A stretch of DNA of 64,000 nt, taken from an uncultured Candidatus Rokubacteria bacterium. GTDB taxonomy: Bacteria; Methylomirabilota; Methylomirabilia; Rokubacteriales; CSP1-6. The position numbers and the translations under genes are program-made. The notes beneath the pieces were generated by a model. The model saw nothing but the letters and a program-made list of their open reading frames with translations, made no database searches and was not told the DNA's origin. This document shows positions 44,939 to 47,733 of this stretch, one piece after another (the first letter of the stretch is position 1; each line of letters begins with the position of its first letter). The stretch is taken from the NCBI GenBank assembly GCA_963747235.1, contig CAVVEU010000013.1, positions 128,001 to 192,000 on the forward strand, given 5' to 3'.

Positions 44939-45511
44939 ATGCAGGTCCCGCTCACTCCGAGGCGCTGGCGGCGGGCGGAATACGACCGGCTCGTGAGTTT
45001 CGGGGCGTTCCAGGGCGAGCCTCTCGAGCTGATCGGTGGGCAGCTCATCGTCGCCGAGCCTCAGGGCTCGTATCACGCCTCCGCGATCACCCGGGTCGAC
45101 TACGCGCTGCGGGCCATCCTGCCTCCGGGGTGGATCGTGCGCCTCCAGGCGCCCGTGTCGCTTGACGACGAATCGGAGCCCGAGCCTGATGTGGCCGTTG
45201 TGCCGGGATGGCCCGGGGACTATGGCGACGCCCATCCCACGCACCCGGCGCTGCTGGTCGAGGTGGCGGAATCCAGCCTCGAGCTCGATCGTGTCCGCAA
45301 GGGCAGCCTCTACGCGCGCGCCGGCGTGGCCGACTACTGGATCGTGAACCTCGTCGAGGGCGTCGTGGAGGTATACCGGGACCCGGTGCCGGCCGCTTCG
45401 GCCGCCTTCGGTTATCGGTATCGCACGGTCACGCGGCTGGCGGCCCCGGCCGATCTCATCCCGCTCGCGTTCAGCGGCGGGCCCATCCCGGTGGCCGACC
45501 TCCTGCCGTAG
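44939..45511 (+). CDS. Uma2 (DUF820) PD-(D/E)XK endonuclease family
   Basis: ELIGG, EPEPDVAV, LVEVAESS, KGSLYARAGVADYWIVNL. Confidence 0.9.
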   Translation: MQVPLTPRRWRRAEYDRLVSFGAFQGEPLELIGGQLIVAEPQGSYHASAITRVDYALRAILPPGWIVRLQAPVSLDDESEPEPDVAVVPGWPGDYGDAHPTHPALLVEVAESSLELDRVRKGSLYARAGVADYWIVNLVEGVVEVYRDPVPAASAAFGYRYRTVTRLAAPADLIPLAFSGGPIPVADLLP

Positions 45512-45537: not shown

Positions 45538-45565
45538 TGATAAGATCCCGCCCAGGGAGGCCTGG
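45538..45565 (+). promoter_or_regulatory. Extended -10 (TGaTAAGAT) and SD GGGAGG for the selenoprotein gene
   Basis: TAAGAT 45541-45546; SD 45555-45560 lies inside the CCAGG-gagg-CCTGG hairpin. Confidence 0.5.
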
Positions 45566-45567
45566 CC

Positions 45568-46667
45568 ATGGTGACGCTGCTGACGGAGTCGGGTGAGCAC
45601 GAGGTGACGGGAGCGGAGCCCTCGACCGGGGCGCTCTGGGTTTCCGCGAAGGACGCGCTCCGGGCCACCGGCTGGGAGGCGAAGCCCGAGGGCCTCTGCA
45701 AGGGCGAGATCTGCGTGCCGCTGCCCGCGGGACGCGACCGTGAGTTCGTGGCTGATGGGCGGATCAACCTGGCCACGCTCTGGCGCCATCTCGGCCAGCC
45801 GGCGGTGCGGAGCGAGCGCGGCCACGCCTGGGTGCTGAGCGAGAGCGCGCGGGAGCGGAAAGCGGCCCTGGCCTCGCTCGAGGCGCCCGACTTCGCGCTG
45901 CCCGACCCATCGGGGCGCATGCACCGGCTCTCCGACTACCGCGGCAAGAAGGTCTTCCTCGTCACCTGGGCCTCCTGGTGAGGCTGCCGTCGCGACCTGC
46001 CCGGGTGGCAGGCGCTCCAGGAGGAGCTGGCGGGCCACAACTTCATGGTGATCGCGGTGGCGATGGATAGCCGCGAGGGCGATCCACTGCCGTGGATCGA
46101 CGCGGCGAAGCCGACCTATCCCACGCTGATCGACCGCGAGCACCGGCTGGCCGAGCTCTACGGCATCGTGAACGTGCCGCAGGCGGTGTGGATCGACGAG
46201 GCCGGGCGCATCGTGCGACCGGCCGAGCCCGCCGGCGCCTACGAAGGCTTCCGCCAGATGAACCGCGCCACCCGCGAGATGCCGGAGGAGGTGGCGCGGC
46301 GCACCGCGCAGGCGAAGGCCCTCTACCTGGACGCGATCCGCGACTGGGCGCGAACGGCGAGCGCAGCGCGTACGCGTTCACCCCCGAGCAGGCGCGCGCG
46401 CATCTGCCCGCGGTGACCGAGGACGCGGCGACCGCGCAGGCCCTGTTCCGGCTCGCCCAGTTCCTGATTCGGCACGGCGAGCAAGCGGAGGCGGAGCGCT
46501 GGATCCGCGAAGCCAGCCGGCTCCATCCCGACTCCTGGTGCATCTGGCGCCAGGGCGCCGGCGTGACCGAGCTGGGCCTGGCCGCCCAGCCGGACTTCTG
46601 GCAGCGCGTGGACGGGCTCGGCGCCAAGCGCTACTACGCGCCGGTGGACATGCCGGGCATGCCGTAG
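45568..46667 (+). CDS. Selenocysteine-containing TlpA/ResA-like redoxin (WASW-U-GC) with N-terminal domain and C-terminal helical TPR-like region; one frameshift near 46350
   Basis: Track ORFs 45568-45981 and 46045-46416 are in the same frame; read-through gives APDFALPD...RGKKVFLVTWASW*GCRRDLPGWQALQEEL...VIAVAMD...YGIVNVPQAVWIDEAG; the TGA is codon 138, at the redox-Cys position. Confidence 0.85.
45992..46015 (+). promoter_or_regulatory. Candidate bacterial SECIS hairpin
   Basis: GCG(A)CCTGCC-cgggt-GGCAGG-CGC; the G-containing apical loop begins 21 nt after the UGA. Confidence 0.65.
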
Positions 46668-46674
46668 CGTCGCC

Positions 46675-47733
46675 GTGAAGAGCCCGCTGTTCGGCCTCAA
46701 CCGCTTCGACTCACGCTCGGTGGACGCGTTCGCGGCCGACGTGCGTCGCGCCGAGCAGCTCGGCTGGGACGCGGCGCTCCAGCCCGACTCCCAGCTTCGC
46801 CGCCGCGACACCTACGTGCTGCTCGCCGCGGCCGCGCGGGCCACCGAGCGCATCACGCTGGGCCCGCTGCTCGCCAATCCGGTGAACCGGCATCCGACCG
46901 TGACCGCGTCCTCCATCGCGACGATCGACGAGCTGGCGCCCGGCCGCGTGCTGCTGGGCTGGGGTGTGGGCGACACCGCGGTGCGCCTGGCCGGGCTCAA
47001 GCCGGCGCGGGTGGCCGAGCTGGAGGCGGGCACGCGGCTCATGCGCGCGCTGCTCGCGGGCGAATCCGTCGAGGTCGGCGCGGCGCGCCCGGCGCGGCTG
47101 CCGCATCATCGGCCGGTGCCGGTGTGGATCGCGGCGGGCGGGCCGAAGACCCTGCGGATGGCGGGCGGGGTCGCCGACGGCGTCTTCATCCGGGTCGGGC
47201 ACGCATCCGGCCAACATCGCGACCGCGGTCGAGCGCGATCCGCGCCGGCGCCGCGGCGGCGGGCCGCGATCCGGCGTCCGTGAAGCTCGGCGCCATCTTC
47301 CACACCGTGCTGGTGGACGAGCCGGCCCGCGCGCTGACCATGGCGCGGTCCATGGCGGCCGGCTACTACGAGTACTCGCCCGCCCTCTTCGATCCGCCCG
47401 CGCTCACGTGGACCGGGCCCGATCCCGAGCGGCTCAAGCACGATCGCGGCGTGTGGCCCGATTTCCACCACGCGCCCGATCTCGAGGCCAGCGGCAAGGT
47501 CGTGGACTTCCTCCCGACCGCCGCCGCCGACGCCTTCAGCCTGCGCGGCGGGACCGGCGAAGTGGCCGAGCGCCTGCTCGCCGCGCTGCGCGCCGCGCCC
47601 GCCACCTTCGACCACGTCGTGCTGCACCCGATCCCGGACCCGAAGTGGCCCGCGGACCCGGAGCAGCGACTACACGGCCCGCATCGCCCGCGAGGTCCTG
47701 CCCCGCGTCCGCAAGGAGCTGGAGACGCGCTAG
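46675..47733 (+). CDS. LLM-class flavin/F420-dependent oxidoreductase (Mer-like; frameshifts)
   Basis: PDSQ, NPVNRHPTVTASSIATIDE, GVGD, AAGGPKTLRMAG, ADG. Confidence 0.85.

Follow-up and report, generated by a model that had tools for sequence, protein, structure and literature searches.

The window, the whole 64,000-nucleotide stretch of DNA analyzed here, carries on its forward strand an open reading frame that starts with ATG at 45568 and meets an in-frame TGA at 45979 to 45981, its codon 138. Past this TGA the same frame reads GCRRDLPGWQ...VIAVAMD...VNVPQAVWIDE, and it closes at another TGA, at 46414 to 46416. The interval from 45568 to 46667 measures 1,100 nt, which is no multiple of three, and it contains more than one frame. 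The following features were assigned to the locus.

45554 to 45560, + strand: Shine-Dalgarno-like AGGGAGG, 7 nt 5' of the start codon, read off the sequence.
45568 to 46352, + strand: coding sequence (CDS) part 1, consisting of ATG, 261 full codons, and the two first bases of codon 262.
45697 to 45714, + strand: C-K-G-E-I-C (Cys44 and Cys49), a CxxxxC motif with both Cys present in every one of the 38 family members aligned.
45967 to 45987, + strand: W-A-S-W-TGA-G-C motif, read from the sequence and its translation.
45979 to 45981, + strand: TGA as the codon of selenocysteine (Sec), residue 138, assigned from homolog codons, public-run contigs, and the alignment to the structure 3gl3.
45985 to 45987, + strand: TGC, Cys140 of the U-G-C motif, invariant in 38 of 38 sequences.
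45992 to 46015, + strand: extended hairpin with a bulged A and a lower GCG/CGC stem, lineage specific, from fold energy and homolog alignment.
45996 to 46012, + strand: putative core SECIS hairpin CCUGCC-CGGGU-GGCAGG, from pairing, covariation, and RNAalifold.
46352 to 46353, + strand: frameshift site, where a single C is absent and GGCGCG directly adjoins AACGG, versus GGCGCGCAACGG.
46353 to 46667, + strand: CDS part 2 in the shifted frame, residues 263 to 366 of the intact protein, helical and TPR-like.

CDS part 1 spans the N-terminal domain, the thioredoxin fold, and the beginning of the helical domain, and part 2 comprises 104 codons (46353 to 46664) followed by the stop codon TAG at 46665 to 46667. 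The initial annotation had placed the TGA at the first Cys of a WASW-U-GC motif, with the same frame completing a thioredoxin fold, and the translation confirms this. It had also taken the locus for one gene of about 366 amino acids, which is true of the gene, since the intact orthologs encode 365 to 367 amino acids, but not of the window as assembled. We hold with high confidence that the locus is a single gene with a recoded UGA and that its product, soluble and made of three domains with about 366 residues in all, is a selenoprotein of the UGC ResA/TlpA-like redoxin family. The matter is mainly one of annotation: gene callers cut the gene at the UGA and the one-base gap cuts it again, so that two or three fragments would be entered in its place.

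A search of 61 genomes (60 relatives and the window's own) returned a homolog (E ≤ 1e-20) in 48, among them each of the 20 from the same genus, and every match except four short partial ones contained exactly one internal TGA. CDS part 1 is 76 to 91% identical to the same-genus homologs over 262 residues (215 and 250 residues in two partial cases), and the best match in one further same-genus genome is just 52% identical. The TGA stands at codon 138 (137 in one) in all 28 complete homologs of relatives, with frames of 365 to 367 amino acids; a homolog cut by a contig end (L046) and a frameshifted one (L045) were left out of this count. The true stop codon of the 28 complete homologs is TAG in 19 and TGA in 9, and since TGA serves as a normal stop in these 9, the genetic code is standard.

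An alternation between TGA and TGC at this codon, which had been proposed as a check, was indeed seen in public genomes. When one genome per species was scanned, 479 loci were confirmed, and the best 80 of these comprise 78 with TGA and 2 with TGC (L105 and L142). As one of the two search patterns matches only Cys forms, Cys forms are, if anything, over-sampled. The 80 loci carry labels of Methylomirabilota/Rokubacteria, Alpha-, Beta-, and Gammaproteobacteria, SAR324, and others, and relatives with solved structures carry Cys where the window has TGA. Four soil-metagenome runs from four studies, with contigs 95 to 99% alike, list no difference at 45979 to 45981, and contigs span the TGA in at least three of the four (X1, X2, and X4). 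The proposal of Sec at codon 138 is thus in agreement with both the complete homologs and the public-run contigs, and the TGA at 45979 to 45981 is strongly supported as a genuine selenocysteine codon.

That the organism uses Sec, as the initial annotation had predicted, was borne out by the genome, in which tRNA-Sec, selA, selB, and selD were all found. The tRNA-Sec scores 69.3 bits and is called by ARAGORN as SeC with anticodon tca. The scores in bits are 578 for selA, 365 for selB, and 228 for selD, and all four genes exceed their cut-offs. The genes for tRNA-Sec, SelA, and SelB are grouped on another contig, and selD lies elsewhere. Matches to selD (G000:C27:46033-46945) fall in two frames, and those to another selD-like gene (G000:C8:303114-303868) in three. 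These frame breaks, in genes that the Sec pathway needs, are likely indel errors. Two further candidate selenoproteins were noted in the genome, each with one in-frame TGA at the active site. One (L058, G000:C27:76002-76343) is a TlpA-like redoxin with the motif F-W-A-T-W-U-T-T-C and a hydrophobic N terminus; the other (L063, G000:C9:13648-13950, with a similar match at C33:382755-383057) is a PrxQ/BCP-like peroxiredoxin with the motif T-P-G-U.

Downstream of the UGA, positions 45992 to 46015 can form the hairpin GCG(A)CCUGCC-CGGGU-GGCAGGCGC, whose core consists of a 6-bp stem (45996 to 46001 paired with 46007 to 46012) and a 5-nt loop that begins 20 nt past the UGA. The extended hairpin has a fold energy of -14.7 kcal/mol, which 3 of 200 shuffles equalled, and the core (45996 to 46012) one of -9.3 kcal/mol. 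The fold of the 55-nt context is unexceptional compared with shuffles (z = 0.21), so that it is the comparison of homologs, not the energy, that speaks for the hairpin. In an alignment of the window with the 78 TGA forms (72 columns), the stem is paired in 97.9% of 468 cells (78 distinct sequences), and two-sided changes occur in 22 cells, at 2 of the 6 pairs. None of 500 shuffles attained either figure, and slid controls reached at most 66%, although kinship among the sequences inflates such shuffle tests. RNAalifold recovered the same stem unaided. At pair 25-39, formed by base one of the Leu144 codon and base three of the Gln148 codon, the counts are CG 63, UG 9, UA 6, and C-A 0, and pair 24-40 shows 16 double changes to UA. 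The loop reads CGUGU in 68 sequences, GGUCU in 5, CGGGU in 3, and AGUUU in 2.

Because the stem lies in conserved codons, a control of Leu codon usage was made. Leu144, within the stem, is encoded by CTG or TTG only (0.65 bit, 73 sequences), whereas ten other conserved Leu columns in the same 73 sequences use 5 to 6 codons each (1.40 to 1.98 bit). CAA at Gln148 was seen only together with TTG at Leu144 (6 UA pairs and no C-A, n = 78). The hairpin is gone from one of the two Cys forms, L105 (0 kcal/mol), and retained in the other, L142 (-7.4 kcal/mol); its loss in L105 is what relaxed constraint would give, although two cases prove nothing.

The bacterial SECIS model of Zhang and Gladyshev, as outlined in PMC13188914, has a loop of 3 to 9 nt, a stem of 4 to 16 bp, a G at loop position 1 or 2, a distance of 16 to 37 nt from the UGA, and a minimum free energy of at most -7.5. 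The hairpin of the window lies within the ranges of that outline, with a 5-nt loop, a 6-bp stem, a spacing of 20 nt between UGA and loop, a minimum free energy of -9.3 to -14.7 kcal/mol, and a G at loop position 2 that is followed by G or U. A search of Rfam at a permissive threshold over 45900 to 46120 gave chance-level rows only (e.g., mir-3155, 23.9 bits versus 70) and no SECIS family. The SECIS-like hairpin described initially stands in its upper 6 bp, which are conserved and covarying, but the lower GCG/CGC stem was rejected as a family-wide feature, its pairs being kept in close kin only. Judged from pairing and covariation among homologs, a putative SelB-type recoding hairpin 3' of the UGA is strongly supported.

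The assembled gene lacks one C after position 46352 that is present in all six of the closest homologs. Contigs of all four public soil runs are listed with a C put in behind 46352 and none without it; run X3 has two contigs with the inserted C, at a depth of 22.9 of 46.8. The source sample need not be among the four runs (0.62 is the highest word share of any of them), so that the deletion could be real in the strain, and in six RNA runs the word share of the stretch is 0.09 to 0.15. Since the adjacent gene and selD are broken in frame in the same way, the gap is read as an assembly error, and we consider a consensus error very likely. The statement in the initial annotation that the lesion keeps the frame accordingly holds for the TGA but fails for the gene, which has its own frame-breaking one-base deletion.

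Frame breaks were also observed around and outside this gene. The adjacent gene, which is luciferase-like (PF00296, 46675 to 47724) and begins 8 nt past the stop codon of the selenoprotein gene, lies in three frames (46675 to 47199, 47268 to 47666, and 47662 to 47724), versus an intact 351-residue ortholog in L064; this implies at least two more frame breaks in about 1 kb, which fits assembly indel errors. In another genome, assembled in few contigs, the ortholog L045 (G013:C19:140881-141667) contains one extra base at about nucleotide 640, which likewise divides the gene between two frames.

Were the TGA an ordinary stop, the locus would encode an N-terminal protein of 137 residues and, separately, a redoxin fragment downstream of it, or else be a pseudogene. 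Standard ORF calling does divide the gene at this point, and the N-terminal part resembles short unannotated clusters of a protein atlas, although these may themselves be split calls. Termination here is nevertheless extremely improbable: TGA occupies the same codon in nearly all of the 80 loci across phyla, with Cys in the other two, the residues that directly follow it belong to the best conserved of the protein, no start codon lies near the motif (the first ATG downstream is at 46045), and the thioredoxin fold would break inside its active-site turn. Even less credible is a miscalled TGC or TGG. The assembly does have many errors, but all those that were traced break the frame, and the only one pinned down to the nucleotide is the loss of a single base, not a substitution; moreover, homologs from independent assemblies carry the TGA without exception, and public-run contigs that span it agree with the window. 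With selenocysteine kept as the preferred reading of the codon, it is conceivable that Sec insertion uses another signal and that the hairpin is a by-product of the conserved peptide D-L-P-V-W-Q. The stem does lie in the D-L-P-x-W-Q codons, so that constraint on the protein would by itself account for much of its conservation; four of its six pairs are without any two-sided change, the amino acids are near-invariant, and one Cys form retains the hairpin. We regard this as very unlikely, given that synonymous choice is narrowed right at Leu144, that its codon is coupled to the third base of Gln148, and that the 72-nt alignment has no other conserved structure with two-sided changes.

A selenoprotein by descent could still be dead in this strain, if the deletion is real and removes the C-terminal helical domain. 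In favor of this are the assembled sequence itself, in which the deletion stands, and the source sample, which is not established for any run examined. The C is carried, however, by near-identical contigs in all four public runs as well as by the closest homologs, and the gap site is a GC-dinucleotide run. The shifted frame is open and 100% family-like up to the normal stop, which argues against decay, and the frame breaks in selD, the selD-like gene, and the luciferase-like gene form the pattern of uncorrected indel errors. A dead gene is therefore unlikely, and the consensus error remains the preferred explanation of the gap.

Clustering of neighboring ORFs within 2.5 kb across the 80 loci gave no cluster in more than 17 loci and no conserved neighbor. 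An MFS transporter lies upstream in 15 of the 80, and the luciferase-like gene is directly downstream in close kin only. An operon partner for the selenoprotein gene was considered and rejected, as no neighbor is conserved across the family. In the window, a putative restriction endonuclease of the Uma2 family (PF05685, 91 bits) lies upstream at 44939 to 45511, and it adjoins the selenoprotein gene in 1 of the 80 loci. Most close loci are labeled Methylomirabilota/Rokubacteria. Five others, L064 (the same record as L027), L066, L068, L071, and L073, are 77 to 100% identical to the lead sequence of the alignment and about 79 to 90% identical to the window, and are labeled Acidoferrum, Limnocylindria, Deferrimicrobiaceae, Verrucomicrobiia, and Nitrosotalea; these odd labels look like taxonomic mislabels or mis-binned contigs.

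The name of a ResA-like WAxxUGC family, brought up in the initial annotation, exists and matches the protein: it is NCBIfam NF041054 (WAxxUGC_long, "ResA-like WAxxUGC motif-containing protein"), an equivalog model of 354 positions with a curated cut-off of 300 bits. The N-terminal piece of the window scores 249.1 bits over profile positions 8 to 254 and the C-terminal piece, in the shifted frame, 51 bits over positions 248 to 353; each is below the cut-off because of the frameshift, and together they cover positions 8 to 353. The ortholog L064, which is intact and shares 90% identity with the window across residues 1 to 262, scores 300.8 bits, and two more NF041054-like members score 301.2 and 282.4 bits (the latter L116, 282), which places the clade at the edge of the model. 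The protein shares with NF041054 the W-A-S-W-U-G-C form of the WAxxUGC motif with its TGA-encoded Sec, the length, and the three-part "long" layout, matched end to end; the window copy differs in being broken by the one-base gap.

Pfam matches are AhpC-TSA (PF00578) and Redoxin. A family "Prx-like (UGC-containing)" is tabulated among the selenoproteins of the 2008 GOS survey (PMC2398784), and a "UGC-containing Prx-like protein" is named in PMC9312934. With the tabulated family the window's protein has in common the AhpC-TSA assignment, the UGC motif, and the single Sec, and going by these published descriptions, it is very probable that the two families are the same UGC-motif Prx-like/TlpA-like family. 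The suspicion that the family might not be new was well founded, for it has a curated entry and has appeared in the literature since 2008; the selenoprotein family is already known and the find is an ordinary one. The consulted text of the published surveys gives no function for the UGC Prx-like family, and that of the reviews and the 2008 survey offers no protein-level evidence of Sec insertion in it. In a literature search the term "WAxxUGC" was not found, and "selenoprotein" together with "Rokubacteria" returned nothing relevant by title or abstract. The family is widespread, as the number of confirmed loci in one genome per species indicates, and many homologs are labeled as marine or freshwater proteobacteria. 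The locus adds a selenoprotein to a soil bacterium whose nearest relatives carry Methylomirabilota/Rokubacteria labels, the phylum to which a 2026 review assigns the largest predicted bacterial selenoproteome.

An AlphaFold model of the 90%-identical intact ortholog, built with 38 aligned sequences (pLDDT 94, pTM 0.91), consists of a beta-rich N-terminal part (residues 1 to about 100), a thioredoxin fold (about 104 to 222), and a helical C-terminal part (240 to 349), with TPR-like matches to consensus TPR repeats at residues 285 to 328. An extra N-terminal CxxxxC domain and a helical C terminus had both been anticipated; the CxxxxC is present throughout the 38 sequences and the helices appear in the model. 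Besides Cys44 and Cys49, residues Sec138, Gly139, and Cys140 are invariant in all 38. The N-terminal domain modeled alone has a pLDDT of 86.5. It has no Pfam or NCBIfam domain, Foldseek against the PDB returned nothing at E ≤ 0.001, the best VIA-align hit (Z 5.6) is inside the common/chance range of that tool, and the protein atlas gave unannotated short clusters only; a missing solved match does not make the fold new. The highest 19-residue hydropathy is 0.96, so that no membrane segment is predicted, and having neither this nor a signal peptide, the protein is probably soluble and cytoplasmic, unlike ResA and TlpA.

In the mechanism that we propose, the UGA would be read as selenocysteine in translation, the mRNA hairpin 3' of it recruiting SelB with its Sec-tRNA(Sec). 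Sec138 would then occupy the place of the nucleophilic Cys of ResA/TlpA/DsbE proteins, and this placement of Sec within a TlpA-like fold is strongly supported. Cys140 is likely the resolving Cys of the U-G-C motif, and the two residues may form a Sec-Gly-Cys redox center that cycles between selenol/thiol and selenenylsulfide, with the flanking N- and C-terminal domains presumably providing a partner or substrate site. What role such a center plays alongside two extra domains is not a new question. One answer, which we consider speculative and rather unlikely, is that the UGC family is a distinct cytoplasmic redox enzyme and not a Sec-swapped ResA-like reductase, in which Sec-Gly-Cys and the CxxxxC would act as a relay or as a metal/metalloid site and the TPR-like domain would hold a partner.

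The best PDB matches of the model are the thioredoxin domains of DsbE-like proteins, ResA, and TlpA (rmsd 1.4 to 1.8 Å over 112 to 118 columns). The profile alignment to the DsbE-like 3gl3 sets WASWCG-CR against WASWCGPCR, with the TGA opposite the first Cys of CGPC; given this one-residue gap, the motif is U-G-C, one residue shorter than CxxC, in keeping with the original description of a UxC and not a UxxC redoxin. Membership in the extracytoplasmic ResA/TlpA/DsbE proteins was rejected, the protein having no CxxC and no anchor and scoring far under the respective cut-offs (66 versus 170 for ResA and 60 versus 230 for TlpA). In common with ResA, TlpA, and DsbE/CcmG (1st9, 1jfu, and 3gl3), it has the thioredoxin fold, the WxxWC...C turn, and the V-P (cis-Pro) loop. 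In contrast to them, it has Sec in place of the first Cys and U-G-C in place of C-x-x-C, is without a signal peptide or membrane anchor, and adds an N-terminal CxxxxC domain and a TPR-like C-terminal domain to the shared fold.
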